Source: Circinaria calcarea
Lineage: Eukaryota
NCBI GenBank assembly: GCA_051942165.1
Contig: JAVECS010000032.1
Location: forward strand, 1 to 37,835
DNA: 37,835 bases
Direction: 5' to 3'
How positions within the stretch are numbered: position 1 is the stretch's first letter; every line of letters begins with the position of its first letter. The position numbers and the translations under genes are program-made. The notes under the pieces were generated by a model. It saw only the letters and a list, made by a program, of their open reading frames with translations, was not told the origin of the DNA and made no database searches. This document shows positions 1 through 30,332 of this stretch, piece after piece.

Positions 1-50
1 GGGAAGGGAAGGGAAGGGAAGGGAAGGGAAGGGGAGGGGAGGGGAGCGGG
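1..50 (+). repeat. (GGGAA)n / (GGGGA)n polypurine microsatellite
   Basis: Six GGGAA units followed by GGGGA units at the window start, about 250 nt past the TUP1 stop; may be truncated by the window edge. Confidence 0.95.
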
Positions 51-303
51 AGTTGGACCTTAGTCCCGCTTATATACAGTTCGTTGATCGACGGGTACGA
101 AGGAAGAAGCAATAGAGTCATCGTGGTCAGGGCAGCTGCCAGACAACATTCGGCAAGGAAGCCGGGACCTGATCGCGACACTATCAAGGGACTCGTTGCC
201 ACCGGCCCGAAGTCTACTTTGTTCCTCCAAACACCAGACTCTTCCCAGCCCCACAAATGGAGTAGGAGCAAACAGCCTCCTTCGAAACCGCCGGGCTCCC
301 CTA

Positions 304-2739
304 TCATCGTCCATCCCAAGGCACATATCTAGTAATGTCACATTTATTAGAGCCGATCTTGAAGACGAGCAACGCCTGGATACAGACCTCCAAATCCGTG
401 CACGCATGTCACCGCTGCCTGTAGCAAAGAGCCCGCCGGCAGGACTGGGAGCCACCGAGATGACTAGATATGAAAGTTCGGTAATTAGTCCATCACCCCT
501 TGTCTGTGTTTTCCTGTCTCTTCGCCAAGCGGGAGAGTCACGTGAACTCACCGGAATTCTTGTGGCCTTGGAGCATCAACTGCGTGTCTCCGGTTCTCGG
601 ATCCCAGAATTGCACCCCTCGATCTTTTGAGCCGCTGAGTACCCATGCGCCATCAGGAGTGAGTGCAACACTGAGGACAAAATCCTTCGGTCATGTTAGC
701 GGACCATCCCACAGCAGCTACCCGTGCAAAAAGCTCGATCAACCTCACCTTATGACCCTCGAATGTTCGCACGCATTTACCTCCCCGGGCGTTTTGGCCG
801 TTCATCATACCGCCGCGATCGCCACCCAGCTCCCACATCTTGATCGTTTTGTCAAGACTGCCGCTAACCAAATCTCTTCCATTGGGTGCAAAAGCCACTG
901 AGTAAACGCTGTCTTTATGGCCTTCGGGCCCGTCGAGTCTCTCAACTATATAACCGGTGCGAGCATCCCAGACCCTCACGCTTTTGTCAAGTGAACCGGC
1001 TGCTACATATTGTCCATCCGGAGAAATAGCTACGGTCGTCACCCCGTCTTCAATGCTCATGTTAAGAACCTCGCGGTCGGCCTCAATGTCCCAAACACGC
1101 ACCGTGCGGTCGCCACTGCCAGAAGCGATGTGGCGACCATTGCGAGCAAAATCCAGAGAGTATATGTCTTGTTCGTGGCCACTAAAGGTCCGCCTTATGG
1201 TTTTGTTTGCTATGTCCCAGACCTGAAGCGATGAACAATCAATATCGTAGAGCTTGTGTGATGGATCATGCACATGATTGGCTTACCCTAATCTGCTTAT
1301 CTTCTGCCCCGGTTGCTAAGTATTTTCCGTCCGGACTAAAGCACACACTGCGAATATAAAGGTCGCCATCCTTATCGACAGAGTCGTCTTGCAGATGCTG
1401 GACCTGTTTTCCTGTATTGACATCGAAAATTTGTGCCGAGCGATTGCAGCCGGTCGCAACGTATCTTCCATCCTGACTGAAACGTACACAACACACTACG
1501 CTCTCGTGCTGTAAGTTATGCACAAGGCCAACATCTAGGACACGAGGTACGCGCGGGTTGAAAACAGCAAACCAATCTTCCCCTTCACGCTTCTGATGCG
1601 GGCCTAGACGATCTGGATCCAGGTCCGCCAGCATATTCCCAACGTCGAGGACCCGGGATTGCTGTGGCGGAGGGGTGGGTCTCGGCATTTGTGGAGAAGG
1701 CCGAGCATCTGGGTACGGGGCTTGTTGATTCTGTTGTGGTGTAGCAGGACCAGGAGGACCACGGTTAGGTCGTCCTTTCCCCGGACCTGGTGACGCAGTC
1801 GATGGTGGAGGTTGTGAGCTATATCCTAGGCTATGTGTTAACCTTGCCCAAGAATGATGGAATACTCGCTAGCCTAGAATCAAGACATTGTCACGTCGGC
1901 GGCCAAAAAAAAAGAACCTGCAACTCGTATCGGTTGCTGTACGTAGGCACTCACCGTTTGATATCGGGGGTGGACCGTATCCTGCAAATTGAGGTGGTTG
2001 TGGTTGTTGAGGCCCTTGCTGCGGCTGCGGCATTTGGTGCGGTTGAGGGCCTTGTTGTTGCTGCTGATCTTGAGATGGGGGCGCTAGACCTGGCCCACCT
2101 TGACTCGGGGGATTAGTCATGATAGTACCGAAAAGTGTGCCTTGCCCATTGCCTATGTTTGGCGGCTGTGGGTGTGAAGGACCGGCATGCGGTGGTAAAC
2201 CACCCATATGAGCCGATGGACCGCCGCGAGCTTCCAACTCATGGCGAAGGCGAGCTATCTCTTCATCATATCTGCAATACAGACAGTCAGAAGTGAAGGG
2301 ATATTGGATCGACCTGGGTCAGTACCTCGTTTTGATCGCCAGCTGGGTTTGTTCCAGGCTGTATACCTTTTGCCTGACCATTTCCATTTCTTGCATTTGG
2401 GCCGCCACTAGGATATCAAGATCAGCCATTGGCCTGCAAGAGTCGATCTCCATGACTTCGTCCGTGGTACATCAATAGGGTTCCAAGATTCTCCTTCTCG
2501 ACAGATGGTGTAGTAATAATGGTTTTAAATCCGCAAACCCAATCACGCATGATAAAGGCGCGGAAGTATACAGGTTCCGGATCGTATAGCAAATAAGTGA
2601 ATCCAAGAGCAAACTTACTCTGCTGTTCATATTCCCCCGTCCGGTTTTGCTGGTTGTCAAATTCTGCGCGCACCTGATCTAGGAGCTCGGTCAAGCGATT
2701 GTTGGGCGCGGAGACCATCCCACGGTGGGCGTTGTACAT
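304..2739 (-). CDS. TUP1: General transcriptional co-repressor Tup1/RcoA (Tup_N coiled coil + WD40 repeats), 8 exons
   Basis: ATG 2739 [21 protein letters not shown], then [17 protein letters not shown] (Tup_N); WD repeats [80 protein letters not shown]; last exon YVPWDGR, TGA 304-306; 7 GT-AG introns keep frame. Confidence 0.96.
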
Positions 2740-4930
2740 TTTGCTTTGTAAACTATTGACAGGTCGAAGAGACAACGTGATTATTGCTGCGCTCGCCCAA
2801 AGGCACCGTGATGCCTGAAGGAGATGGAGAGTCGGCGGTCAACCGCCTGTAAGGGTGGGAAGGTCGGCAAGTTGCTTGCGAGCAGGCTACGACTGTCCGA
2901 ACGTGTCAAAGTAGGGAATGCTGGAAGGAGCCTCTCGATGTGCGTCCCCGGCGCGTATGTATGCGCAGGCAATGTGAGATCGTGGTTCGCCGGTCGGAGT
3001 TTTGGAAGCGAAAGCGTGTCGTGCGCAATAAGTGCGGATAGTCCAGTATGAATGCGGAGGTAGCCTCAGATGAGGCGTTAATGACAATGATGATGACGAT
3101 GACGGGCGCCGTGACCCCTCGGCAAGTCGTTTGGCCTCAGCTGAGAAGAGGGCAATTACTATAGGAAATGAGATTGTCTGGCGAGGTCGAGGGCGCAGGT
3201 GTAAAGAATGGTTACTCTGACGGGCGTAAAGTGAAGGTGGATACGAAGTACGGGGACTGGGAATTGGGATTGGAACTAGCCCACGTCCCAGTCTCGCCCA
3301 CAACACCGTAATTTGGGGGGACACGAGCTCTCTAAAAAAAAAAAAAAAAAGAGAAGGCTGGAGCACGGGCCTCCCTACCTCGTTCTAAAATACACCTAAG
3401 GCAGACGTGCCTTTACTGGCGCCCTCGGTCCGATACACGCTACTAGCACGGGGGGGAAATTCCCATCATGATCGAGATTCCCTACCTATTCCCTACCTAT
3501 TCCCTGCTCCGTTTCATTTGGCGGTTCCTGAGCTATCGTCCGACTTGCCGAGTCTCACGGACACAAAGCCGACAATGCTAAGGGAAAAGCCTTCGGCTCA
3601 AACCCGATCCAGTCTGTCATCTACATTCGATCTCATCATCTTCCTGTCGAATACGCAATGGAGATGAGGATCGCGGTACGGGGAGTAGTCTGACGGCTTT
3701 TCTGGGCAGATGAATATGCTTTCGGCCAAGATTTCACGGAAATCACGTTCACGTGACACATAGGGAAAACATTTGATTGCGTGTAAAATGAAATACGTTC
3801 CCAAGTGGTTAGAGTCGTTGCGGGATAAAGATGGTTGGATAAGAAGGGCTCCCCTACTCCTATAAAATGTACTCGAGGCCGTCTTGGACCGAATACCAAC
3901 GCTTGGGCAGTTGATCTTCTGATCTTTAACAACACATTGATTTTGCAGAAAAGATGCCCTGGGTCGGAGAACTTTCTTTCGCAGTCACTGCCAGTCATCT
4001 ACCTGCCACATGCGCGAAAGCCGACAGAGAGGCGTGTAGAACATATACGGAGCGTGACCCGAGTACCGCAGACACTTGGGGCCGTTTCGGTGATTCCTAC
4101 AAGGAGTTTGTTATGTACGGCAGGCTGGCATCGATACTCGAACCTTGATGTCGTAAAGTCTACGGTGGTCGCAGGCATAATAGCTGTTGGTGCGGTTTGG
4201 GACAAACCCTTGTATACTCGGCCGAAACAGCATAAAATCCGAGGAAAAAGGAGCTTTGATATTAAGGGTATCCTCCAGGGGCCCATTCCAATTTCCTGTC
4301 TAAAATTTGATATAAAGTATACATGTACAATGAAGCTATGTAAAGCTAGGCTGGGGTTCTTTCCGTGCACGTATGTATTGGCCGAGTCCAATTATTCCGC
4401 GCCTACATAATATCGTCTGATAATTGACAAAGTTCGCTAAATGCCCCAAATGTAGCTACATAAAATTAGATGGGGGGCTCCCTTCCACTCAGGATGTTTA
4501 CTGGCTGGTTATTCCCCTTTTAGCCCCAGCTGCAAAGTCCATTTTACTGGTTTTTGTGTCATTATTTGTAGTAGTAGCCTCCTAGGCCTCCCACATGCAA
4601 AGCTGAATGGCAGAGGCCGCTGCCGAAATAGCACCAAACCCTAGGATGATCCCCACCTACAAATCCCACACCTCTATGTACTATGAAGCCGCCAAGATGT
4701 AATCCAATGCCTAATCGGTACGGGGTCCAATCCCTCTGCCTGGTAATGAATCTTGCTCGCTAGCCCTGATGCTGCGGCCGCCGATAACGGAAGATTCACA
4801 GGAGCTGCGGTGTACTCGCCGCATAGTACTCAAACGATTGTGTTGACGAATTTTGTATTCACCGCCCCAGACCATGGTAAAAAGAGCGGGATATGAAACC
4901 TGGGAGAATGTCCTCTGCATATGCCAAGGG

Positions 4931-5959
4931 CTACTTACCCTTCGCTCCTACTAACCCGGGTAGATATAGCTTAGTATTCTCATATGCTAGGAAAGTAACA
5001 CAACTGCTAGGAATCACCCGCAGCAGATTTGGCCCCAGCCCTTTGTAGAAACCTGATATGCCCTCCCGCTTCCAAATTTGGCCGACCACATCTCGCGCAT
5101 TCTTGTATGTTTTGTCGGCATCGTAAGTTTGCAGCCTGGCTCTGATAACCTGGTAGGGGTAGGTGACGCTCCCAGCAACGAGCTTGCTTGTTCCGCTGCA
5201 GATTAAGAAGTCTATGTTGCTCAGGTTCTTGTACCCTCCAGCAACGCTGGGCCTGCGGTACTTCTTCATTTGCTCGTAAGCCATGAACTGAATTGCTCCA
5301 TGCGAGACTCCATATAGGGACGGCACAAGGCCACGATAAAACCCTTGGAGACCCTCCGACCGAAAAATACGCCGAGTACCGTCAGATATGGACCTGTACG
5401 CCCCATGGTGTGCCGAAGAGGTAGAGAGCAGGCGGGTCTTGATCACCCAGATCGGGTTCGTGCAGACAGATGTCAAAGCTCCTGAAGACAGATTAGCGTG
5501 AGGATCTCACACCACCGAAGGTGTGAAAGACCTGCTGCTCCGGACGCCAAGAAGAAGTCATAATACGAGAGACCATCTTCGGTGGTACCGTGGAATGCAG
5601 AAAGTGCGCCCTTGACTTGACCATACCACAGAAAGTACAGGGCCCAGCTCACGGAATTCCCAATGAGATTAGATGCAAGTCCCCGGTAGAAAGCTGACAA
5701 TCCGCCCTCGTTGCGTAGGATATTCTGGGCAACGCCGATAGAACTGCCAAGTTGAGATTGAGATGTGTTATTGACTAAGTTGGGTCAAAAGAGTCAACGG
5801 GAAGAAATCTCCCCGGGGGAAGGGGCACTTTAAACTCATACCTTGGAGACGGGTCTTGATTAAATCGAGCGGATGCACGATTATCGTAGTCACACCGCCG
5901 GCGGTGAGCCCGGCAATAGTTTCGACCAGCGGTTGTGGCAACGCTTCAAGATTATTCAT
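4931..5959 (-). CDS. FLX1: Mitochondrial carrier, FAD/folate transporter (Flx1/SLC25A32-like), 3 exons
   Basis: Three carrier signatures HPLDLIKTRLQ, NPIWVIKTRL, YPYQVIRARLQ; SWALYFLWY and GVSHGAIQFMAYE are typical of the Flx1/folate carrier subfamily. Confidence 0.85.
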
Positions 5960-6401
5960 ATGTATCCGTGATAGAGTTTCGCGATTCCAAGTTGCGGATT
6001 AATCATGCCAGATAAGCCGGCGGCAGCAATCACATGTTGTCATGGACGGAGTTGAAGATCTCTCCCTTGCACTTTATAGTTAATTATTATTACTGAAGCA
6101 GAACTATTAATAGGGTACTTTTCTTTTCGTACATGGCATTTCTTCAAGAGCGAGGATCGTCCACAGGTCAATTGAATCTTTAGCCCTCAGGGCGATTGGG
6201 TGTAATCTCACAAAAGACCAATGTTTTGCGCCAGTAATATAAGCTCCCTTGAACCGGCTGAGTAGATATCCCCTCGAGAACTACTATGATACATATCGAA
6301 TAACCGGTGCGTCTGTGCCTTAATCCATAACCTATCCGTAATAAGCACCCTCATTCCTCTGCTACGTTAACCTTTTCCGCGTGGCTCCTATTGATGCCAG
6401 A

Positions 6402-6789
6402 TTATGCGAGAGGAGAGAGAAGTCTGGGCCGTTGGGATTAATCGGTTGTGCTGGGCAGGTTGGTCAGAGATAGGCTACGTACCGGATGAATGGCGGCTTT
6501 GGATCGCTGCGAGTATAGCCTAGCAAAGATCAACAATCTCACGATGGACCTACAAGTCAGCTGTACATACCAAGGTAGATGATTAGAGGAAGATAGCCAC
6601 TGGTTGGTGTCAGCCAACTGATCTCTCGGCTTCTGATCACTGTGTATACTAATGTATGGCGATCCGTGAAATGTCGATAATTTTTGTAATGCGCTCCTAT
6701 GTCGACGTTTAGTGTCCGTAAACACGTGAAAGTGTCCAAAGGTAGAGGTAGAAGCATCATACCTTTGATTCCTCCGAGAGTTGGAACAT
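6402..6789 (-). CDS. TOM7: Mitochondrial outer membrane translocase subunit Tom7, 5 exons
   Basis: Not in ORF track. Joining five exons across four GT-AG introns gives [53 protein letters not shown] with the Tom7 hallmark [12 protein letters not shown]; ATG 6789, TAA 6402-6404. Confidence 0.95.
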
Positions 6790-6985
6790 AATTGCGAAAC
6801 GAGTTGATCCTGGGTGCTGTTGAAGTCAAAACAGTTGTTGGAGATGACGGATTACTGCGTGTTAAAATGGAAAAATCCTGGACGCTTCAAACCGCGCTAA
6901 CCTAGACGCGAATCCGCTTATTTCTGTCTCATCGTCAACCTCAAGGCCCGGAACAGATTTATATTGGAGACGTGATATTTCCTAC

Positions 6986-8095
6986 ATGATGTCTGGAGCC
7001 AGACACTGGTGAGATTTTACTGTATATAAATGGAATTAAACTGAATCTGCGTACAGGGAACAAGATAAAGAGGCTACAGTTTATATCGGGAATCTCGATG
7101 AACGAGTCACTGACAGTCTTGTCTGGGAGCTGATGCTGCAGGCCGGGCGTATTGTCAACGTACATCTGCCAAAGGATCGAGTCACACAGACGCATCAAGG
7201 TTATGGATTTGTCGAGTTCATCAGCGAAGAGGACGCAGAGTATGCGGCCAGAATTATGAATCAGGTCAGATTGTATGGCAAGCCTATTCGCGTGAACAAG
7301 GCATCGGCAGACAAACAAAAGACCGTAGAAGTTGGTGCCGAGCTCTTCATAGGGAATCTGGATCCCATGGTTTCTGAACAAACGCTCTATGATACCTTCA
7401 GTCGTTTTGGTAGCCTCATATCGGCCCCCAAGGTAAGTCGTGCCATCATGTGCCATGGATCTTAGCTGACTTTGGTTATTTAGGTTGCGCGCGATGATGC
7501 AAACCTTTCCAAAGGATATGGATTTGTTTCGTTTTCAAACTTTGAAGCATCCGATGAAGCGATTGCTAACTTGAACGGACAATACCTTATGAACAAAGAG
7601 ATCTCGGTGCAATATGCGTACAAAAAGGACGGCAAGGGGGAGCGTCATGGTGACGAGGCTGAACGAATGCTGGCAGCTCAGGCAAGGAAGCACAATGTAC
7701 AACCCTTAAGTCAGCCGCTCCCTGCCGGCTTGTTCACCGGAGCGACGCCAAGTGCCCCGGCAGCAATGATGGATGGCGATAGTGTTCGCATTATAGGTGG
7801 AATTCCTTCATCACCGGCCATATTCATGGGTGGACGCGGCGGATTGCCCAACGGAAACTACGCAAATGTACCTCCTCCGCAACAACGACCTGCTCTTTCG
7901 CCGCAGCCTCTGCCAACCCCTCCTTCAGGCTTACCAGCAAGGCCTCCTCCTTCACAGGCAGGTTATGGTGGTCCTCAAGGATTTCTTCCACCGGGATTCA
8001 ATTCCACGCAGCCCCCTGGATTCGCACCTCCACCGAGTGCTCCCCCTGGACTTCCGCTGGGTTTCCAGCCTACACCTTTTGTAAGGAATCGATAG
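6986..8095 (+). CDS. HSH49: Splicing factor 3b subunit 4 (Hsh49/SAP49), two RRMs + Pro-rich tail, 3 exons
   Basis: (M)[87 protein letters not shown]. Start is ATG 6986 or 6989. Confidence 0.95.
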
Positions 8096-8530
8096 GGTAT
8101 AAACTCAGAGAATTGTAGATACGACGCAGGATGGGGGTTATGTTTCGAGACTGAGGAGAAGAATCAATAGTACGTTCATCGTGATCTCCAGGAATCAAGT
8201 CAAGGATGTAAGTTTGATGAATGACGACACTGGGTTTAGCATCCATTGACTGCAATTAGAGACTGTTGGTAGGGTATCTGGCTCTCTAGCTTAAAAAGCA
8301 GTATCTGTTATGAGAAGCCTCGAAGTTTTGTGGTATTGCCTTTTCTAGGATACTAACTGTCCAACTGAGTCAGTCCGAGGGTGTTCTGAAGTAACATGAG
8401 ACCTGAATATCGGTACGGGCAAGTAGTTTTCGATGATTAGCAAACGTAGTAGATTGAAACCTTAGTAACCCATGAAAACAATCACCATCCACCACACTGA
8501 GATGAAAAGCCGTCCATCGCTCTACGCCAG

Positions 8531-8956
8531 TCAAGAAAAAGATACAAATTTGGGATCTCTAGGTCTACCATCGGGTCCAATATTATTCCTCGCAAAATTC
8601 CTCTGGGTATAGAGCCTTCTTGCTTCATCGAAGCCCACCCGATTGCTCTTCATAATCTTTCCAATTTCCTTCTTACCCTGCTGATCAAGACCAGCACGGG
8701 AGTCTCTTGAAGCTATGTTTCCTGCAAGATCAAAGTCGCTTGATGTAAAGCCGTCTTCGATATCGTGAGCAAAGGAGGACGGGAGGCGCTCATAGAGGTA
8801 GTTCGGAACGGTGATGTGGTGGAGCCAGCGGTCGCGGGTGAAAAAGAGTCCTGCCTGTCTCAGACAGATGGACAGGCATAAGAAGCGTTCTGAAAACCTA
8901 CCGGTTGCGAGTACGAGGCAACAGAAGGAGATTGTATATAGGAGGTAGCTGGCCAT
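8531..8956 (-). CDS. UPF0357/DUF2015 family small membrane protein, 2 exons
   Basis: N-terminal hydrophobic helix; SFxxDIEDGFTSSDFDL, DSRAGLD, C-terminal NNIGPDGRPRDPKFVSFS; one 51-nt in-frame intron. Confidence 0.85.
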   Translation of the reverse strand: MASYLLYTISFCCLVLATGRFSERFLCLSICLRQAGLFFTRDRWLHHITVPNYLYERLPSSFAHDIEDGFTSSDFDLAGNIASRDSRAGLDQQGKKEIGKIMKSNRVGFDEARRLYTQRNFARNNIGPDGRPRDPKFVSFS

Positions 8957-9250
8957 GTTCGCTGTTCGCTTTCCAAATTTGAGCGTACCACGTTTTGTGA
9001 TGCCCTATGTCTCTCGATTTATGATGAGATGCGACCCTCTTCACACCGGCTGTGGAGAGTAACGGGCCATGGTGATGGATGGAAGAACTGTTGGCTGGAG
9101 GTTGTATTCATTATTTAGAGGAGTCAGATGATAAGCACACTAATGGCGGGCTAAGGGTACAGTCGGTGCCCGAAGTGCCTGCCAAGGTTCTCAGCTTCTC
9201 AGCGCCCACAAATCAATCGAGTGTCAGCAATACCAAAATCAACGACAGTC

Positions 9251-9970
9251 ATGAGTGACCATCACCACTCAAACGTGTCTGCGGACCTGACCTGGGAGAT
9301 TGCGCGTATGCGCCTGGTTGGCGTCGGGAGGTGTACATGTAGCTGATTTGGTCCTCGTAGGCTCCAACAACTCATACTTGGTGAAGAGGAAGAGTGGAGG
9401 CGGGTCGCAGTTCTCACGAGATCCTCTCAATCTGATCAACAAACACTCAAGAAAGGTGCGTGTACTACGAGTGCCCGGGCGTTGCCACTCTTATGGCCAT
9501 CCGGCTAAGACTTGACTGCAGCATGCTGGCTTCGTCAACGATAAGGTACATCCACCCCTATCTTCGGGCATCTCTAGCAGTAAACTGAAAACTTCGCTGA
9601 CGGGGACGCTCAATGAAGGCCGTCGGGATCCACGCAGGGGAGAAGGGTGCAATTGTATTGACTACGAAGAAGACCAAACATGCCAACCGCCCAGGTGCAA
9701 ACAAGAATGAAATTGCTTTTGCTGGGAACAAATCAGGACCAAAGTCAGTGTGGACCAAACTCGGTCTACCCTCCCATCACTGAAACACATCTTCACAGAA
9801 TCTATAAGGGGATCGTCAATTACACTGCGAAGCAAGGATACCGGCCAGATCTACGCCGGGAGGCAGTCGCTCGTGCCAGTACTCTCCGTCAGATATCACG
9901 ACCGAAAAAGGGCATGGCGGAAAAGAAGCTCCGTGGGTCGAAAGCGAAAAAGGCGGCGGACAGCGAGTGA
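9251..9970 (+). CDS. RPL28: 60S ribosomal protein eL28 (L28e), 5 exons
   Basis: MSDHHHSNVSADLTWEIAR|SNNSYLVKRKSGGGSQFSRDPLNLINKHSRK|HAGFVNDK|AVGIHAGEKG..GYRPDLRREAVARAS; metazoan-type L28e naming. Confidence 0.93.
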
Positions 9971-10378
9971 ACAGCATATCTCCCGCAGTGTTGGGGTCTA
10001 GGATGTGCATAGATAGCCTCTAGAAATCCTAGCATCCAATTGTTTGCTCGAGTCAGCCAGGCAAGTGAAGTGCTGAACCGCTTTACGTACCCTGTGCCGG
10101 CCCAAGATTGTATACCTTCTTCGAACCGTCTCCAAGCGTCGTTTCCCTGTACCGGAGTATCGGATTAACTGCTAGCCGGTCGCTGGTCTTGCTGCAAGCG
10201 ACCCAAAAGCGCCTGTCCAGTAACCCCGCTTGGTGGGGCTGCTCCCATTCGGTCATAAGTGCCGGGTCCACTGCCAACTTACCGTCGTACTTCCTCATCT
10301 TCAAGCATCCCACATTTCCCACCACCGTTTTCTAGACAGAAGTGCAATCTTTATTTGCGTCTTTCCGCTATAATCATC

Positions 10379-11768
10379 ATGGTCAAAGTTGGTGGGCATT
10401 CGGACGTCTAGCCGTGCATATACGGACAGTCAACTGAAACTTTCACAGTGGTATTAGGAGCATCCGGTGGCATTGGCCAGGTCAGTCCTTGGAAACGGCC
10501 AGGCAAAGGCTGAAAAAGGAAGGGTGCCGTGGGAAAGCTGACCGGACCATCATCAGCCTCTCTCGCTTCTCTGCAAAGCTTGCCCCCTCGTTGACGAGCT
10601 ATCCCTCTACGATGTTGTCAATACCCCTGGGGTCACCGCCGATCTCTCGCATATCTCATCGATTGCAGTAGGCGCAGGCAATGTCTTCTAGTGTCTCCCA
10701 GATCTAATCGTTGACAGAAAATCACCGGGTACCTTCCCAAAGATGATGGCTTGAAGCACGCCCTTACAGGAGCCGACGTTGTACTTATCCCGGCCGGGAT
10801 TCCCCGTATGTTGTATGCCATAGCCGACTAGTGAGATGACGCTCATCAGAGATCAGGCAAGCCTGGTATGACCCGGGATGATCTCTTCAAGATAAATGCC
10901 GGAATTGTCCGTACCCTCGTTGAAGGGGTTGCGCAATACTGCCCCAAAGCGTTTATCCTGGTTATCTCGAACCCAGTAAACTCGACGGTTCCCATTGCGG
11001 CCGAGGTCATGAAAAAGGCTGGCGTCTTCGATGCCAAGCGTCTGTTTGGTGTGACGACTCTTGATGTGGTCCGAGCTGAGACTTTCGTTCAGGATATCAC
11101 TGGGGAGAAAGATCCGTCAAAGACCGTTATCCCAGTGGTTGGTGGGCATTCCGGGGAAACTATTGTGCCTCTTTTCAGTCAGGCAAAGCCAGCTGTTAAG
11201 ATTCCCGAAGACAAGCTTGACACCTTGGTGAAACGTGAGTCAACTAGTATTTAGCATAAGTACTGCGGTCTAATATTTTTGAAAGGTGTGCAATTCGGCG
11301 GAGACGAGGTTGTCAAAGCAAAGGATGGTGCCGGCTCTGCAACCTTGTCGATGGCATATGCTGGATTCCGGTAGGGCCTCCTGACCGAAATCATGTTCAT
11401 CGAAAGGGTCACTGACAAATCGTCTATTCAGCTTCGCGGAAAAGATCATCAAGGCTATTAAAGGCGAGAGAGGGATCGTTGAGCCCACATACATTTATTT
11501 GCCAGGTGTCTCCGGGGGGGAAGCTATCGCAAAGGAAACTGGAGTAGATTATTTCTCAGTACCGGTGGAGCTTGGTGTAAGTCTTCAGGCAGCAAAACAT
11601 GATTCGTTGCATGACTAACCCATACAGCCGTCCGGTGCAGAACATGCCAATAACCCGCTTGGGTCGGTAAATGAGTTCGAGAAGAAGCTGCTCGAAGCCT
11701 GTATTCAAGGTCTCAAAGGCAACATTGAAAAAGGAGTTGATTTCGTGCACAACCCGCCTCAAAAGTGA
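10379..11768 (+). CDS. MDH: NAD-dependent malate dehydrogenase without AUG-initiated mitochondrial presequence (cytosolic/peroxisomal type), 8 exons
   Basis: [90 protein letters not shown]; ends VHNPPQK, TGA 11766-11768. Alternative end at 11944 (see findings). Confidence 0.96.
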
Positions 11769-12147
11769 TTCACCCTTCTGGTGTCTATCCGTTTGGAGTT
11801 TTCTATTTCTTTCCTTCATACATTCTGCTGCTTCCCTTCAGAACGATCCCAACAACCTGATTCCCCATCGAAAGCAAAGACATGATACATAGCGGCTTTT
11901 GATGGAACTATGCTGATCAACGGCGTGCCCTAGGTAGGCTTTGAGTTGGAGGAAGCAGTGGGAACACGGAGCGTACTAGTCAACTTGAGCAGCTACATAA
12001 TTTGATAGCTCCTACCTAAGACAAAACTGATTTCCAAGTATGCACTATCAACAAAGCTATTGAAGAGTGTGGTTTTGGGTGGAGGTCTGAATCAAAGTTA
12101 ATCGTTGAGCCAGGCGGTATAAAACAAGCACTCAGAATCAGCAAGTG

Positions 12148-12993
12148 CTATGATTTGCCCGTTATAGTTTTAATCTGGAAAGTAGCGCCAGGTAGCTCGG
12201 ATGTCTCCGCTTGTACTGTCGCGTTGATGCCCATACTGGCCAGAGCACCTCGGATTACTCCACAAGGAAACCAGAGGAACTATATCGGTCAGCAGGCAAA
12301 TTACCTCATGCATTGTGGAGACCGCATACTGGCTGAGCTTGTGAAGTGGCCTCTGCAGGTGACTGCATGCTCATACGTGAGAAAGGCTTAAAGGTGTTGT
12401 CTGTAAGAACGTAGACACCCTGAATGGATGCAATTTCCCGCTTCAGCACTACCCCTGCCACCGCGGGAGGAGCTCTCATACCCGGTGATTTGTCTTCAGG
12501 TTGTCAATCTGCTTCTTGAAAAGCAGTGTCCACAAATCCTTGCACAGAAACTTGATCACATCCAGTGTGTCGAGGAAGCGTGGCCGATCCCTCGAGAATC
12601 TAGGTGGAGGAGAAGAAGGAGGCAAAGAGTCAGCAAAGCGCTTCACCCCTTGCGTCTCCAGCGGTTTTTTTCCCGGGCCGGTCCATCATTCCCCGATCGC
12701 CACGGGGTGAGTTCTTCTTCACGTAGCGGAAAAAGACAATCTCACCTCTCGACCAAGCCCTGGCCGACCCGGTATCCCAATGTCTCCAAGCGTCGAAACG
12801 CAGCTTCCCTCTGCCCGTCCTCTTCCTCCCCCTTCGCCTTCTCTCCGTTTCCCGCGGCGACTGAAAGTTCGCGGGCGAGTCGGTAAGCCATGGGCACAAT
12901 CTCAATCAGGAGAAGGTCCAGACAGGAGCTGTTAAGGAAGTTTGCATGAGGATCGGAAGCATTATAGGGTTGAAGGGGCGTATCGAAGGACAT
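12148..12993 (-). CDS. TRS33: TRAPP complex subunit Trs33 (Bet3 family), 4 exons
   Basis: [88 protein letters not shown] 12148-12150. Confidence 0.93.
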
Positions 12994-13472: not shown

Positions 13473-15602
13473 TTATCGCGATACATCAAAAGCGTAGTTT
13501 GGTGGACCGGACGGCGGCCTTGCAGGATTCAGCTTCGGAAGATTAAAGCTCGTCCCGTTTAGTCGATCTGAAAGTGCTCCCGGTCCGTCCGTCGAAGTAC
13601 TATAGGCATGAGGCGGGACTCGCGGCTCAATCTGACTCGACTGCCGCTTAGGAGCTCGAACAGGCTGGTCTTCCTCATCGCTGCTGAAAGTAAGGTCTAT
13701 GACTTGACCTATCGGTCTTTTGCCATTCACGGACCGTGGCGCTGCGGAGGCAGTAGACTGTTCCCTTGATGAATATGGCGGTGTCCTGGTCATTGATCCG
13801 GGTGTGAAAACGGCTTCGTCTTTAATTGCCGCCAGTCGAGGCATATCATGGATCTCGATCAAATCGTCATCTTCGTCGCTTTCTGAATGAGCTCCACTTC
13901 TTGCCTTGGGATTGGATGAACCTTCATTAGGTGAGACTTGCGACCATTCTCCATTCGGTTCAATCGTGACCTGATCGACAGATGATGGTGTAGATCTCAG
14001 TATATCGTTAACGTATCTGCTGCGTGTTAGCAGCTTCGACATGCCCCCACGTATTTGAACATACTGGTCGACTTCGAGCGCTTCAAAGGAGATAATCTTG
14101 TTGCAAACCGGGCAAGTCCATGTAGGAGCTTGCTCCTGGAGCTGGAGGAAAGACAAAGCATCGAAACATTGATTGTGAGTACAGATCGTAGATCGACATG
14201 GGATGTCAATGCGCAAAGTTGAGAGGGGACATTTTAAGGACATTATTGACGACGTAGCTACAATATCGCTATCTTGAGCTTTGCTAATCACTGTTTATGA
14301 TTAGGATATCATCTTCTCCGTTTGTGCCGCCGATAGGAATAGAGCCTTACTCTCACGAATTACTTGTTCTTTCGAGATAGATTTGCCTGTTTTCAGCTTT
14401 TTCACCAGCTCTTCCGGAGGGATCTGCTCAACAAGATTGACGACGATATAGAACTTCTAGAAAGCAGAGTCAGTATCTTCAACATGCTCGAGTCGTTGGT
14501 AGGATGATATATAGGAATCCATGGATTTATCCCACGTACGTGAATGCTGCGTTTTGGGTATCTGGAGCACTCACTTTGGTGGTCAGGGCATACGTCACCG
14601 TCATAGAGTTATCATACCCTGGACGCTTTCGAAGCATATAGGTGATATCCGCGGGTCTTGTTGATCCCGGCTTATTTTTAAGCCCTCTCAGATTCGCCTT
14701 TACTTCATCGAGATTAACTTTAATCTCGACTTGATGTGGAAATGCAATGTCGACCTTTGAAAACGGAGATATGGGATCCGAAGCACAGTACACCATCGCT
14801 TTTAGGTTCAGGGTAGTATTAAGTAGCTTCTCGGTTACGCTTTGCTTGAGGGTGATCTTGCATTCCAGTGTATCCCGGGTATTTTCTCGTACTGAATTGG
14901 GCTGGTCAATGTCTGACCCGCAATATGAGTATAAGGTAACAAGGAGACCGTGAACATTATGTACCTTTACATTCCAGAACAGGTGTAAGGGGTTCAACAA
15001 TCGAATAAAAGGGGCTATCCTTGAAATTTGGCCGTGCTGATAGAATAATTAGTAGCGCTCGCCTTAGAATGATTTGAAAAGACTTGTATCCAAGTACCAT
15101 GGGCGTATGCGGTTGAAGGCATTACAGGTGCAAACGAGTTCGGGAGTCTAACAGCTCCGCCAGTAATCGGTGCTTGCGGTTGAGTGGCCGGCGTCAGTGT
15201 GCTATTGTGGAAGGTTCGAGGAAGATTCGATGGAGTGGTATCAGGGTTGTAGACCAGGGCCTTCACTCGGTTGAACCCATCAACATCGCCGGAGCGCGCG
15301 TACCCAAATAAATCTTAAATGTGGAAAAAGTTGAATTAGCGGCGGGCCACCAAACGTATAGAGTAATTGAGCTCGGCGGCAAGGGTCTTTATGGTAGACA
15401 GAGGCATAGAGGACGAGCCAAAACGTCAAGGCATTCAATATAATCGCCAGAACCTACGTGTGATGATGCGCTCTTGCATGGTAGCTTTTACCCCTGATAC
15501 CGCGAGGCCCTCTTTCCTCAGGATTGTTTTCAACTGTGCATTAACGAGTGTCTTCACCTTTGCGGCTACATTCTGGGGATCAAGTGATCCAGCAGAAGCC
15601 AT
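13473..15602 (-). CDS. SIZ1: SIZ/PIAS-type E3 SUMO ligase (SAP, PINIT, SP-RING/MIZ), 7 exons
   Basis: SAP-like LVNAQLKTILRKEGLAVSGVKATMQERI; PINIT region FPHQVEIKVN..NLRGLKNKPGSTRPADIT; SP-RING SLKCPLSTLRIDIPCRSTICTHNQCFDA..WTCPVC; SIM VIDLT. Confidence 0.92.
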
Positions 15603-17498: not shown

Positions 17499-20400
17499 AT
17501 GTCCAATGCCTTTCTATGCATCTCATCACAGTTGTCTTTTGGACTACTGACACTTGCTAACCTCCTCATTCCGATCGCCATCTTGACGTTTGCAGCTGGG
17601 TTTTTCCCTTACAAACCTTTCCTTGCAGGCAGAGCGCTCTACGATGTGGATGAACTTGCCCTGGCGAGAAATGCCCCATTCAACAAGGTCATATTCATGG
17701 TTGTCGATGCGCTCAGGAGGTGTGCTTTCGGGAGTCAATCGTCTCGGGTACTTGAACTAATCATGGCAGCGACTTTGTCTACTCCAATCATTCAGGGTTT
17801 CTGTTCACCCAAAGGTACTTGCAAACCAGGTAGACTGTTTCAATCCATAACGCTACTGAACATCCGACAGTCTGATCAGGTCTGGGGCTGGAATACCCTT
17901 CACGGCGCACGCGAATCCACCAACGATCACCATGCCGCGTGTGAAGGCTATCACCACCGGCTCTATACCGTCTTTCCTCGACGTGATCTTGAATTTTGCT
18001 GAGTCCGACTCTTCGTCGAGCTTAGCACATCAGGATAGCTGGCCTACCCAATTGCAATCGAAGCCAGGAGGACGGCTGGTCTTTTACGGGGATGATACTT
18101 GGCTTAAGCTATTTCCCAATGCCTTCTTCCGCGCTGATGGTACATCAAGCTTTTTTGTTTCGGTTAGTGCCACTGTTTGTCTAGCAATGTGTACAATAGT
18201 CTAAGTTGTAGCTAAGTTTCTGATGCTAGGATTTTACTGAAGTGGACAACAACGTGACGAGGCATTTACCGTATGAGCTAGATCAGAGTGACTGGGACGG
18301 TTTGATCATGCATTTCCTTGGACTCGATCATATTGGACACAAGTCCGGCCCGCGAAGGTATATCCACATGGACGATTGGGAAACAAGAATATACTGACGG
18401 AGTAGTTCACATATGTTGCCCAAGCAGTTGGAAATGGATGGGATTGTCAAGCAAATCTATGAAGATATGGAGTCTAAGGACCATCTTCGGTCAACGTTGC
18501 TTGTTCTTTGCGGCGACCACGGAATGAACGATGTAGGTAACCATGGAGGGTCCGCCTCCGGGGAAACATCTCCTGCTCTTGTCTTCATCTCTCCTCGCCT
18601 GCGGAGCATCTCGTCCGGGTTCAAATGCCCTGCGATTATACCGACGAATGAATTCCAATATTATAAGGTAGTTGAACAATCCGATATAGTACCAACCCTT
18701 GCGGGTTTATTAGGGTTTCCTGTGCCGCTAAATAACCTAGGGGTTTTTATACCCGATCTTCTGCGGCTCTGGCCGAATGGTATGTGGCACCTCGGTATAG
18801 AGGATAATTTTTCATGTCTTATTGATATTGATAGAAAATCATCAAGCTCGAATACTATATCAGAATGCGAGACAAGTCCTGAATCTTGTCAAAACTGCAT
18901 TCAATAGCACAGCCTTCGACGACCGATGGAACTCTACCGACTGTTCTCAAATTTCCTCCAATGCATTATGTTTGCAATGCCAGTGGAGTTTTGCGAAGAA
19001 ATCGTTTGATAGTAAAGTTGTTAGTACCGAAATGAAGTTGGATGCGTTATTTAAGGTAAATTTGCTCGAACGAGGAAATATTAGGACATTCGCTAAGTCC
19101 GCAGTTTCTCCATAGTGCTCAAGATATCATGAGCGTTGCCGCCAGCAGCTACGACATCGCAACATTACAAGCAGGTATTGTTATTGCCGCACTGGCCACA
19201 TTTGTGGCTATCGCTATGTGCGCTACGAGCACCGAGAGAGCAAGTTCGACGAGCTCTGTATTTTTATTTTCGGTGCTGGCGTATGGTGCAACGATGTTTG
19301 CGAGCAGCTATGTTGAGGAGGAACAGCACTTCTGGTATTGGATGACGTCCGGTTGGCTGGCATGGCTTGGTCTCAAGGTGTAAGCGTTAGTCCGTGTCTC
19401 GAGATTTGGGAGTATTGCCAACGTGCCAAATATAGTTATTCTGATCGGAAGCATATGACCAAGGCTCGTTTCTGGCTTGCCGTCGCCTTACTTATTACAA
19501 CCCGTATTGTACGCCGCTGGAACCAGACAGGTCAGAAGCACGCCGGAAGCCCGGACATTGCTGGAACGTTTCTGACAGCCCATTGCTCAACACTGTGGAT
19601 ACTCATCATAGCATTGTACCTCGATCTGGCTCGTCGCATATCTTCAAGCGGCCTGCCGGGAGCTCCTCGTCACGTCTCTAAAATCGTTGCGATTTCAATC
19701 TGCCTTGCTGCCTTTGGTTTCAAAGTCAAATATACACACGCAGATGCTCCGGAGCTTTTACCTGGGTTTGAGAAAATGTTTATGAACGTTATGGAAGAGG
19801 CTTCGCTAAATACTCAGGCTCGCTCTGTCTTTCTTAGTCTAGGAATTTGCTCGACTTGGATCATTTTTCAGAGATGCCGTCGGCAGTTGCAATCGAAGTC
19901 GAAAACAACTGGGCTAGGTACGTACATTTGAATCGCCTTCCGGTCTTTCCAGTCTTTCTAATTGGAATAAGCAGAGCTCGCCGGACCGTTTCATGATCTA
20001 CTAACCCTCTTTCTTGTAACACAATCTCGAGTCAATAATATTCCGTTATTCCTGATATTTGAGTACCAACTTCAAATCCTCAGATCCCTCCAGCTCAATG
20101 CCGCCGATATCACGCTGACCTCACTCCTTTTCCAGTACACCTCATATTACTCGTTAGGGGGATCCAACGCTATATCCTCTATTGACCTCGCAAATGCTTA
20201 TAATGGCATAAGCGGCTATAATGTCGTCGCGGTTGGGTTCTTAACGTTCGTCAGCAATTGGGCCGGTCCAATCTGGTGGTCATCCGCGGCTTGCCTGCTA
20301 CTTCTCAGGCATCCTAACCGCCGACAGCAAAGAATTCTCAAAAGACACCTCACGACGTGTACCTTGTTCACGGCATGCAGCATTCTATCCGTCATGCTTG

Positions 20401-20546
20401 CCTGTATGGTTCTTAGGGCGCATCTCTTCATTTGGACGGTGTTTTCGCCAAAGTATTTGTATAGCATGGCGTGGAGTTTGGGGCAGCATCTTTGCATGAA
20501 TGTGCTGTTGACCAGCCTATACTTCTGGCTCGCGCCTACCTCCTAG
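17499..20546 (+). CDS. GPI7: GPI ethanolamine phosphate transferase 2 (Gpi7/PIG-G), 9 exons
   Basis: GFFPYKP; IFMVVDALR|SDF; PTITMPRVKAITTGSIPSFLDVILN; FYGDDTWLKLFP; DFTEVDNNVTRH; HFLGLDHIGH; GDHGMN; SSYVEEEQHFWYW; HLFIWTVFSPKYLY. Confidence 0.95.
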
Positions 20547-25974: not shown

Positions 25975-28797
25975 ATGCCTGCTGTTGTCGACCCTCGTAG
26001 TGACCTGAATTTCGCTGTACAACAGGTTAGAGCTACCTACGCCGAGGATTCGAATCATCTCCACTAACCCTACTGTCGTCAGATCGTACTCTCGCCTTCT
26101 GAGAATGAGTTCTTCGATCAACTCATAACGGCGGTTGGCGATGCCAGTCGAGACGGGAGGGGGCACCAGCTCCTTCAATCCTTGGCCCAGTATTCCGACG
26201 ATCGAGAATTCGAGATCGAGGCAATGTGCAACAGCAACCATCAAGAATTTACCTCATCCGTCAACCAACTGCTCAAAGTCAGGCAGGCTACGGTCAACCT
26301 CACGTCCGAGATTCTGGGCCTGAACGAGTCCATTCAGTCAAGCACTGAGACGCTCGCTCGGCATAAAAAGGCCCTCGTTGAATCTCGTGGAGTGCGACGG
26401 AACATCGACGGCGCCACTCAAGCTCTGCATGACTGTTTAGAGGTACTAAGCCTTGCCAATCAGGTCCATGACCTGTTGGGAAAGAAAAGCCACTATGCCG
26501 CTCTCCGAACGCTCGACGAACTTCAAAATGTTCACCTTCGCGAAGTCACGCAGTACAAGATTGCCGAGATGATGCAGAAATCCGCTCCGGCAACGAAGAG
26601 AATGATAGCTGAAGCCGTCATGACGGATCTCAACACGTGGTTATTCCGAGTGAGGGAGATATCCCAATTCCTGGGCGAATTCGCCTTCTATAACCTTGAA
26701 CAGCGGAGAAACAGGCAGAAGGAAAGGGCAGAAAAATATGAGTACCTTAACAGCTTCAAGTTAAACTCTGCCATCGAGCAGGTCTCCGATGAAATTGTCG
26801 AGTTCGACGTACTTGATAATGATGATATACAAGTCGATTTCACACCTTTATTCGAGTGCCTGCACATTCACAGTGCCCTGGGTCAGCATGAAAAGTTCCG
26901 GTCAGACTACGCTGCTACCCGAAGGCAGCAAAAGGAGCTTTTATTGCCTCCCTCCATTAGCTTGGCTGACCCCGAAGGATCAGACCTCAGTGAGCTACTG
27001 GAAGGGATAGCTGGGTTTGCAATAGTAGAGAAGGCAACGCTGAAGAAAGCACCGGAATTACGTTCCATGGCCGATGTCAGTGATATGTGAAGATCAAGTT
27101 GCTGCTGAAACCCCTGGTTAACGCTCGCAGGTTGACGAGTTATGGGATTCCATGTGCCAGTCAGCAATCGTGCTGATTTCGAAAGCTTTACATGAGGTCG
27201 ATAATGCTGAGCTGCTACTAAAGATCAAGGGCGTGATTGCACTGTTTATTCAAACTATGGAGGTGGATGTTAATCTTCAAGGGTGCCCTTGGATCACTCG
27301 CTGACATACACTACCAGTCTTGGGATTATCCGGTTGGCGCACTGGATGGGTTTCTTCTGACACTTTTTGGGAAATACGCGGAGCTCTTGAAGAGGAGATT
27401 CGGTGACGATTTCCAAGAGGTCCGTCAATCCAATGGAGACATGATCGTCGCTAATCACCAAATCAGATTGTTGCCACAGATGATTATATGCCAATGCCGA
27501 TTAATAATCTGGACGAATACGATAAAGTGGTCAATGTCAGCTGGTACACACCGGCTAAAACGCGCGATCAACTAAGGTACAAATTGCGCAACTCACCTTC
27601 CAGCGGCTTCATGTTGTGACTAATACGAGCCAGGTTTCCATGCGTCCTTCCATTCTCTCAAATGTACCCTTTGTGTTGCATCGATATTCGAAATTTTCTA
27701 AATCAGTTCTATTTCTTCGCGGACGACCATTTCCAACATCCTCGGGTCATCGATGACACTTTGAGACAAGTATGGCGTTCTCCGATATCGGGACTCGAAT
27801 AGTGTTGCTAATACCAGCCTATTAGTCATTGGACGAGTTGCTATTAGAGAATGTATGCCAATCCTTAGTAGAACGTCTCAGCTCGCAATATCTCGGTCAG
27901 ATTGTTCAGATTCTGATAAACCTGGAACATTTCGAAACTGCATGTGGGGAGTTGGAGCAGCTGCTTGTCGACGCGAGATCGTCCAGCTCAAGTGGTGGCA
28001 ACGTCACTCTGAACGTGACAGAGGCGTTTCGCAGCAATAAGAAGACGGCCGAGAAGCGAATTTTTGAGTTGGTCAACTCGAAAATTGACGACTTGATTGA
28101 GACTGCGGAATACGATTGGTACCGCTCCCTTCCCAGATACCATTCTGATTTGGGTCTTCGACAGACTACTAATCTTGGCTCTTTGTACCTGTATAGGACC
28201 GCTCGCACTCTCGAGAAGGAACCTAGTAATTACATGCAGACCTTAACTCAATATCTTTCAAACATTATGAATACGGTACTCCTCGGGTTGCCAACGGAGA
28301 TAAAAGAACTGATATACTTTGATGCCTTAAGTCACGCCGCAAATAAGATTCTGGTAGCACGATCTCTGCCCTTTTTGTTTAGTACGATTGACTGATCGTT
28401 TGCTCCCTAGTCACTGCCGTTATCTCCTGAGGTGAAAAGGATTAACCCTAACGGTGTCGCCGCCCTTGCAAAAGATGTGCAGTATCTCTCGGACTTCGTG
28501 GACACCCTACGAAACCCTGTGCTACAACAGAACTTGGAAGAACTGCAGCAGACGATTGCCCTTATGCAAGCAGAGAAGTCGGATGAGTACTATGATGTCT
28601 CGACTAGGAACAAGAAGTATGGTAGAGTTGATGCTCTGAACGGCCCGTTACTCCTTGAAAAGTATAATTCCGATCAACTCTACCATCTGCTTGTAGCACG
28701 AACAAACTAACGTCGTACCAGACTTACATACACGACCCAGAGCCCCACCAAAGCGGATAAGTTCACCACTTTGTCCTCCCGATTCGGGTATCGTTAA
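25975..28797 (+). CDS. SEC15: Exocyst complex component Sec15, 10 exons
   Basis: MPAVVDPRSDLNFAVQQ|IVLS..EIEAMCNSNHQEFTSSVNQL; VDFTPLFECLHIH; FPCVLPFSQMYPLCCIDIRNF; QIVQILINLEHFE; AEKRIFELVNSKIDDL; TAA 28795-28797. Confidence 0.95.
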
Positions 28798-28975: not shown

Positions 28976-30332
28976 TCAGCCGACTTCATAATCCCGTTCG
29001 CCCTCTGCGTCCGCCTCTCCCTCGCCGCCATCATGTCTCTGGTAGTGGTGTGCTGTGTCCTGCGCCCCGGATGGATCTTGACTTCGTGGACCGACTTGAT
29101 ACATCTGTGGATGAGGTTAGCCTGCGATGCCACGCATGTAATGTTGGGCCCTTGGCCACTCTCAACCCCAGTTCCTAGGTCTAACTATAGAGCTGTTATG
29201 TGGAAGGAACGTGGTTTACCTACCTGTTGGGTGGGCATCTGAGGATACGCATACATCTCCCCGAACATTTGGCTCGGCGGCTGCCCATAGCTGCTCGTGT
29301 GATCCGGTTGTACCTGTGGTGCATACATGCTCGGCGGTGGTCGATAATCTTGTTCTGGTGGCATTGGATTATGTCCCAAGGACGAATAGTCAGGGGGCCC
29401 CATGGGGTGTTGCTGTGGCTGCGGTTGATGGCCAGAATGAGGCTGTTGAACGACGCTGCTATGCGTTGGAGGCAACTGACCACTCGAGGCGGATGACGAC
29501 TGGGCTGCAGCGGAAGAGCTACCACCCTGGCCTCCCGATCGTTTGGCATGGCTCGCGGCCTCTTCCCGAGGTACAATGTCGATGAGGAAATCGAACATGT
29601 CTGATTTAGCAAGTGCGGAAGCAATGTCAGAACGTTGGAGTGTGCGCCGCTTGTTTTCTTCAGCGTGGATCCATGCACGCATTGTCAGTTCCGTAATGAA
29701 AATATCGCAACCTTTGGCAAACAATATAGGTGCTTCAGCAGATATCATTTTGACTTCCGGGTCAGCCTTCATAACCTTTTTTATCCGTGCAAGAGGCAGC
29801 TGGTGAAGCTTGTAGTCATGCGTATCATTCTCGAGATGTGCAATTGTTTGCTGCCAGTATGTCATGAGTATGTCGCGATAGTTGCCGTGCAAGCCTTGGT
29901 TGACCTTCTCCAGTTCCGTCAGTCTCAAAGTCCAGCGGTATTCCATTGCAGTCCGATGCACCCACATTTGCCCACGTCCCTTGATACTGATCCGATCCAG
30001 GAGCGCCGCCTTGTGCCGCGAGCTGTTGTGACCATCAGTGATGCCATTGAGCCAGAGCAAGTCTATCGGGCTGTGTGGAAAACCATGGGTAACATACAGC
30101 AGCACTCGCGCCTGCATTCACCTTCCGAATTAGCCATGTTTCTCGGGTTCGGAAGGGTGACGTCGACAGTGGACGACTTCCTCCCGACTCACGCAGCAAA
30201 GCGGTTCCAGCGATTGCTGAGACATGAGTCGGAGAGAAGTGGGAACGTACCGTAGTGTCCACCATTAGCAGGGTCATACTTCGGCGCATGGGGTGGCTGC
30301 TGGTGTCCGGCCCCTGGCTGTTTATGTTCCAT
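28976..30332 (-). CDS. hapE: CCAAT-binding complex subunit HapE/Hap5 (NF-YC), 5 coding exons
   Basis: [34 protein letters not shown]; histone fold [57 protein letters not shown]; last exon ends [16 protein letters not shown] 28976-28978 (last exon less certain). Confidence 0.94.

Follow-up and report, generated by a model that had tools for sequence, protein, structure and literature searches.

Here we report that the cytosolic-type NAD-malate dehydrogenase (MDH) gene of the lichen-forming fungus Circinaria calcarea, contained in a 37,835-nt stretch of genomic DNA (hereafter the window), carries a terminal intron that overlaps its stop codon and ends in two candidate acceptors 4 nt apart. We put at roughly three in four the probability that this intron is an orthologous alternative 3' splice-site switch between a cytosolic enzyme ending in -QK and a peroxisomal enzyme ending in -QKL. 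The gene was identified directly, removal of the intron was seen in RNA contigs of a close relative, and the whole module was found to recur among metagenome loci.

Background

Several published systems provide the context for this intron. In Yarrowia, the YlMDH2 gene has a pair of 3' splice sites separated by 4 nt that lead to C-termini of PAN or AKI; cDNA and RNA-seq each recovered both junctions, the short/long ratio varying from 0.9 to 5.05 and the distal junction making up 17-53%, and the isoforms were reported to be cytosolic and peroxisomal, respectively (PMC3372373, DNA Res 2012;19:231). The first-pass annotation of the window had named this precedent, and that report bears it out. The Yarrowia acceptors are written UAGCUAG in a later study, which describes intron retention as lost there (PMC7491326). 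According to the same study, the MDH gene of A. fumigatus produces three mRNAs: a form with the intron retained, which is the most abundant, a form spliced at the proximal site, which encodes the same protein, and a form spliced at a distal site 4 nt away, which adds one amino acid and completes a PTS1 termed "putative" (PMC7491326, RNA 2020;26:1464). The three-mRNA arrangement is read by those authors as ancestral and older than 590 million years, and for the MDH of Lipomyces starkeyi they describe a terminal intron whose removal creates the PTS1, retention giving the cytosolic enzyme (PMC7491326). In budding yeasts, they report, such a splice switch and a second MDH gene with its own encoded PTS1 exclude each other (PMC7491326).

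The mechanism is thus already published for the orthologous gene, and the window represents a further case. The novelty implied by the first-pass annotation falls away, since the same event is in print for the A. fumigatus orthologue (PMC7491326) and for Yarrowia (PMC3372373).

Results

The MDH gene and its public annotation

Primary analysis of the window yielded an MDH model, built in frame, with a 993-nt coding sequence and a 330-residue product whose C-terminus is NPPQK (Table 1). The seven introns of the coding sequence measure 50-76 nt, and G is present at +5 in all seven. The deposited protein of this gene, P0004 ("MAG: hypothetical protein [Circinaria calcarea]"), comprises 245 residues that are identical to the last 245 residues of the model, and it scores 305.5 bits against NCBIfam TIGR01772 (eukaryotic/gamma-proteobacterial MDH), for which the cutoff is 273.05. 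Exon 5 of the window gene is 82-92% identical to fungal relatives, compared with 61-64% for three non-fungal rows, and the fungal MDH relatives returned by the exon 5 protein search are mostly 328-333 residues long. By sequence comparison, the gene is orthologous to the cytosolic-type NAD-MDH that carries the switch in A. fumigatus and Yarrowia.

The start of P0004 is an internal Met encoded by exon 5, so that the first 85 residues are absent. The four exons upstream of its start (10379-10856), which encode these 85 residues, are backed by transcript contigs of a relative and by 330-residue orthologues, and the public annotation of MDH is therefore truncated.

The genes that neighbour MDH in the window (Table 1) are ordinary fungal housekeeping genes and have no link to the MDH finding. 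Two of the relatives, P0057 (868 aa) and P0083 (627 aa), both from Arthoniomycete MAGs, have histone-fold domains (PF00808, PF00125) fused to MDH domains, probably because adjacent genes were joined into one model; in the window itself, a histone-fold ORF lies 17 kb from MDH.

An intron across the stop codon with tandem acceptors

From the sequence, the first-pass annotation had proposed a cryptic intron across the MDH stop codon, and each of the elements on which it drew was recovered: CAA AAG TGA at the end of the coding sequence (11760-11768), a donor GTGATT starting at 11765, GCTGAT at 11912-11917, and TAGGTAG at 11931-11937 followed by GCTTTGA. Its reading of the three C-termini is likewise correct. 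Unspliced RNA encodes PPQK and a stop; splicing to 11933 gives AA/G TAG, which is again PPQK and a stop; and splicing to 11937 gives AA/G CTT TGA, which is PPQKL and a stop. The first base of the intron is also the third base of the final Lys codon. Its donor has T in place of G at +5, which makes it a weak site unlike those of all seven coding-sequence introns, and the 169-nt terminal intron (173 nt in the distal form) is two to three times as long as the other MDH introns.

Table 1. Coordinates of the MDH gene, its terminal intron and the neighbouring genes in the window
Feature	Position	Strand	Basis
NAD-malate dehydrogenase gene, cytosolic type	10379..11768	+	eight coding exons, model built in frame
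MDH coding exons	10379-10391, 10449-10480, 10557-10667, 10718-10805, 10857-11234, 11286-11370, 11432-11576, 11628-11768	+
5' splice site AA/GTGATT	11765..11770	+	joint 11764->11934 in RNA contigs
TGA stop of the unspliced mRNA, within the 5' splice site	11766..11768	+	sequence
Intron, proximal form, 169 nt; removal gives AA/G TAG (PPQK-stop)	11765..11933	+	RNA contigs
Branch-site-like GCTGAT (CTRAY), its A 17 nt upstream of the proximal acceptor	11912..11917	+	sequence; conserved block in alignment
Proximal 3' splice site TAG	11931..11933	+	sequence and RNA contigs
Second TAG: stop codon after proximal splicing and candidate distal 3' splice site	11935..11937	+	sequence
G CTT TGA: G completes the Lys codon, then Leu codon and stop; read after distal splicing only (PPQKL-stop)	11938..11944	+	sequence
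3' untranslated exon, followed to this point at least in contigs of the relative	11934..12048	+	X2 record 6 to 12048, X4 record 15 to 12046
WD40 repeat protein	656-1868	-
MIZ/SP-RING zinc finger	13476-14294	-
PIGO/PIGG GPI ethanolamine-phosphate transferase	19317-20543	+
Exocyst Sec15	26068-27087	+
Histone-fold ORF	29188-30117	-

In the proposed mechanism, both retention and proximal splicing would give the cytosolic enzyme ending in PPQK, and after proximal splicing the second TAG would terminate translation. Were the spliceosome to choose this second TAG as acceptor, a purine would complete the Lys codon, a Leu codon and a stop would come next, and the distal product would end in [P/Q/A/S]-K-L, a tripeptide of the PTS1 type (QKL in the window). 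Pex5 would then carry the -QKL form into peroxisomes, where MDH would have a role in the NAD+/NADH malate shuttle and the glyoxylate cycle. Later work on Lpx1 of S. cerevisiae, discussed below, reportedly showed Pex5 dependence.

RNA contigs from a close relative

The RNA evidence comes from four metatranscriptome runs (X1 to X4), each of which shares 0.07-0.08 of sampled words; as the runs belong to a single study, they were taken as one observation. The runs are present as assembled contigs, which keep the major variant and drop rare ones, and these were placed on 10379-12150. The contigs stem from a relative rather than from the organism of the window: record 6 of X2 has 46 mismatches in 971 exon letters, an identity of ~95%. 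Six of the introns in the coding sequence appear as joints in the contigs, and the first appears in all four runs as loose ends reading into exon 1.

A joint 11764->11934, which skips 169 nt with GT..AG ends, is present in three of the four runs, with 24 letters beyond it in X1, 115 in X2 and 113 in X4; the contigs of X3 end by 11755, short of the joint. In the assembled, and thus major, transcript the stop-spanning intron is therefore removed at the first TAG. The intron across the stop codon that the first-pass annotation had claimed is accordingly a real RNA event, observed in a relative with ~95% identity. That annotation had also named two junctions to be sought, of which 11764^11934 was seen and 11764^11938 was not among the contigs of the four runs, a form of data in which minor variants are lost; since contigs keep major variants only, the missing distal joint is to be taken as silence rather than absence. 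Contig cover is also missing inside the terminal intron, and on retention or minor forms the contigs are uninformative.

The presence of just the proximal joint, in three of the four runs, is what one would see if the intron were real but, in this lineage, spliced at the proximal TAG only, with the second TAG merely a stop and peroxisomal MDH supplied by another gene or by piggy-backing, as S. cerevisiae Mdh2 is reported to enter peroxisomes (PMC7758625). The contigs cannot exclude a minor junction, however, and with the conservation of the acceptor region described below we regard this explanation as unlikely.

The module in metagenome loci

A metagenome scan with P0004 identified 370 confirmed relatives, and the best 80 of these 370 loci were kept. 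The C-terminus was located by tblastn in 75 of the 80, and all 80 were classified. Twenty-five of the best 80 are unspliced and have a G/T donor over the stop and two AGs 4 nt apart, which give K-stop and then K[L/M]-stop. Seven (L011, L015, L030, L032, L041, L042 and L057) have a single acceptor giving KL-stop. Four are transcript-like, spliced at the proximal site, with a latent KL-stop or KF-stop behind the TAG; a further four have a K-TAG end with no latent signal, 15 end directly in K[LMIF]-stop, 19 were placed in a class of other arrangements and six were not classifiable. Within the class of direct K[LMIF]-stop ends, the transcript-like contigs L002, L021 and L024, from other species, terminate in NPPQKL-stop, and many of the remaining loci have only 48-62% identity; these low-identity loci may be paralogous MDH genes. 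Below ~65% identity the "mRNA-like" flag is unreliable because tblastn can bridge short introns, and match lengths were used instead. A search among the best 80 loci for same-species pairs in different splice states yielded nothing but duplicates and pairs in which both members are unspliced.

The seven loci whose single acceptor lacks a proximal partner lend some weight to the explanation by proximal splicing only, since they indicate that the architecture can change. Two of them, L032 and L057, share the GTGATT donor of the window.

One transcript-like locus, L012 (around 1234), has an NPPQK TAG end behind which the latent distal reading is KLT, without an immediate stop; it is possibly an exception or a decayed module.

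The module also persists in loci that have no other intron over the matched region. The last 245 codons are free of introns in L001, L003, L005 and L008, as are the 243 matched codons in L004, L006, L007 and L028, as judged by matches of 735 or 729 nt in genomic contigs of up to 59 kb; all eight keep the terminal intron with tandem acceptors.

Chance controls

For comparison with chance, an eligible set of 40 sequences was defined, comprising the window and 39 loci in which the last residue is K, the stop overlaps a G/T and at least 100 nt lie downstream. The first-pass annotation had proposed a comparison of orthologous 3' regions. In this set the stop-overlapping donor, tandem acceptors and K[L/M]-stop occur together in 25 of the 40 sequences, against 0.09 expected from 12000 mononucleotide shuffles. 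Any acceptor leading to K[LMIF]-stop was found in 32 of the 40, against 4.5 expected from shuffles. Had the second TAG served only as a stop, as splicing at the proximal site alone would have it, an excess of tandem modules of this size would not be anticipated.

In the window alone, a single K[LMIF]-stop acceptor arose within the 615 nt downstream in 915 of 5000 mononucleotide shuffles (18%), and by itself is unremarkable; the tandem pair, K-stop followed 4 nt on by K[LMIF]-stop, arose in 16 of 5000 (0.3%). The first of these figures would suit the notion that the acceptors are a chance resemblance, that no splicing takes place, and that any peroxisomal form is made by stop-codon readthrough, as in animal MDH1 with its TGA CT context (PMC4207609). 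We consider this extremely improbable. The absence of splicing is refuted by the joint 11764->11934 in RNA, and readthrough was rejected as a route to a PTS1: the stop context is TGA TT rather than UGA CU, and the 41-codon extension in frame ends in KAKT, which is no PTS1. Animal MDH1x and LDHBx (PMC4207609; PMC5133446) resemble the window in that a PTS1 is hidden at the C-terminus and, for MDH, one gene supplies a minor peroxisomal isoform; they differ in relying on translational readthrough at UGA CU.

Anatomy of the module

Twenty-four modules, including that of the window, were compared after exact duplicates (L038 and L047) had been dropped; L006 and L007, which are 99% identical, were both kept. 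The proximal site is TAG in 14, CAG in seven and AAG in three. It is followed in all 24 by the spacer [AG]TAG (ATAG in 15, GTAG in nine), and this in turn, again in all 24, by a purine, a Leu or Met codon and a stop. The added residue is Leu in all but one module, encoded by TTG (7), CTG (5), CTT (4), TTA (3), CTA (3) or CTC (1), and Met in the other; the final stop is TGA in 13, TAA in 10 and TAG in one. The protein tail before the added residue is most commonly PQK (11), then PPK (6), PAK (5) and PSK (2). A branch-like motif lies 6-19 nt upstream in 17 of the 24, and the stop of the unspliced RNA (T[AG]A or TAG) forms part of the 5' splice site. Terminal introns range from 47 to 222 nt in length, and nine of the 24 have the consensus donor GTGAGT.

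Two groups can be discerned in these lengths. Short introns of 47-84 nt (17 of 24) have mostly consensus donors (GTGAGT, GTAAGT, GTAAGC); in long introns of 138-222 nt (seven of 24, the window among them) the donors are weak (GTGATT, GTAAAG, GTAAAC, GTAATA, GTAGTC, GTAGGT).

When the intron of the window was aligned with those of five long-intron loci, conservation was confined to three parts, namely the end of the exon, the branch-like CTRAY block and the acceptor module. The Leu and stop codons turn over synonymously amid otherwise unalignable sequence, a hallmark of selection acting on what is translated from the distal junction. Were the Leu (or Met) codon and the stop behind the second TAG never read, as splicing at the proximal site only implies, their preservation through synonymous changes in all 24 modules would be left unexplained. 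The module is strongly conserved across many Pezizomycotina, and among environmental ascomycetes it is common and under selection.

It could also be supposed that both acceptors are used but that the choice between them serves the fate of the mRNA, that is, its stability, its export or the avoidance of a retained intron behind the stop, the Leu being incidental. Retention and proximal splicing do encode the same protein, so that some of the splicing is without coding consequence. Nevertheless, the Leu or Met is kept through six different Leu codons with the stop always directly after it, a C-terminal Lys is found in the great majority of the proteins (see below), and the Yarrowia isoforms localise differently (PMC3372373). 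This makes an incidental Leu quite improbable, and the coding switch remains our preferred reading.

C-termini of related proteins and the QKL tripeptide

The exon 5 protein search returned 120 relatives which, by their source names, are mostly Lecanoromycetes, Arthoniomycetes, Dothideomycetes and Eurotiomycetes. A recognisable C-terminal motif is present in 105 of them, the other 15 being truncated or mis-modelled. Ninety-five of the 105 end in K (PPK 25, PQK 18, PAK 17, PSK 7, others 28), seven have other C-termini, and three are modelled with a KL end: P0028, P0042 (named Malbranchea cinnamomea) and P0063. P0028, ending in PPPKL, is 98.4% identical over 314 residues to P0020, ending in PPPK, as would be expected if a single gene, or its counterparts in close relatives, gave rise to both isoforms. 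The deposited P0004 misses the -QKL form, in keeping with the earlier prediction of an isoform that standard annotation does not see.

Measured against the strict PTS1 consensus (S/A/C)-(K/R/H)-(L/M/I), as quoted in PMC2173120, the K and L of QKL fit and the Q at -3 is off. The same tripeptide ends Lpx1 (Yor084p), a peroxisomal matrix protein of S. cerevisiae, where it was proposed as a PTS1 derivative (PMC2173120); the protein is unrelated to MDH and its upstream context differs. PMC2448379 was also considered as a source for QKL and set aside, its main text being without QKL.

Discussion

The closest parallels to the window are those of Yarrowia and A. fumigatus. As in Yarrowia (PMC3372373), two acceptors lie 4 nt apart, the distal one of which would create the PTS1. 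However, the frameshift between PAN and AKI alters the last residues of the Yarrowia enzyme, whereas the two forms encoded in the window would differ by an added Leu only, and the tripeptides themselves differ (AKI in Yarrowia, QKL in the window). The A. fumigatus MDH, an orthologous gene, is closer still in arrangement: proximal splicing gives the same protein as retention, and a distal UAG adds one residue (PMC7491326). The differences are that the proximal site is AAG in A. fumigatus and TAG in the window; that the retained form is the most abundant in A. fumigatus, whereas in the relative of the window the proximal spliced form was assembled and the intron was without cover; and that the window combines a weak GTGATT donor with a long intron. 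The seven single-acceptor loci among the best 80 resemble the state described for Lipomyces starkeyi (PMC7491326), while the window has both acceptors.

We infer that the distal site is used in C. calcarea and that the -QKL form is imported into peroxisomes. In the literature searched, import has been demonstrated for Yarrowia only (PMC3372373), and no localisation of a Pezizomycotina MDH -xKL form was found. For an MDH splice switch in filamentous fungi, that literature offered two primary reports of the splicing event, PMC7491326 and PMC3372373, along with reviews, but no report on lichen-forming fungi and no survey of the module across Pezizomycotina. The present analysis adds transcript support for the intron from a relative of a lichen-former, a tally showing the module to be common and under selection among environmental ascomycetes, and the description of its variants, tandem or single in their acceptors and short with strong or long with weak donors. 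In metagenomes, many uncultured ascomycetes share this compact signal, with a stop embedded in the donor and a second acceptor that is also a stop codon.

More speculatively, the stop-spanning module might be the general means by which Pezizomycotina, lichen-formers included, supply peroxisomal MDH, kept even where all other introns in the 3' two-thirds of the gene have been lost, and existing in two tunable designs (short introns of 47-84 nt with GTRAGY donors, long introns of 138-222 nt with weak donors) around a fixed core, the TAG with its double duty. We offer this generalisation tentatively and think it doubtful at present.

Conclusions

These findings indicate that a lichen-forming fungus very probably encodes a peroxisomal MDH isoform which is one residue longer than the -QK form and invisible to annotation. 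For annotation, they imply that Pezizomycotina MDH models ending in -xK should gain a second isoform ending in -xKL. For biology, they add breadth to an observation made in one Aspergillus species and open no new question. If the wider generalisation is true, the two intron designs could set different balances of retention, proximal and distal splicing, and hence different ratios of cytosolic to peroxisomal MDH, possibly in response to the carbon source.
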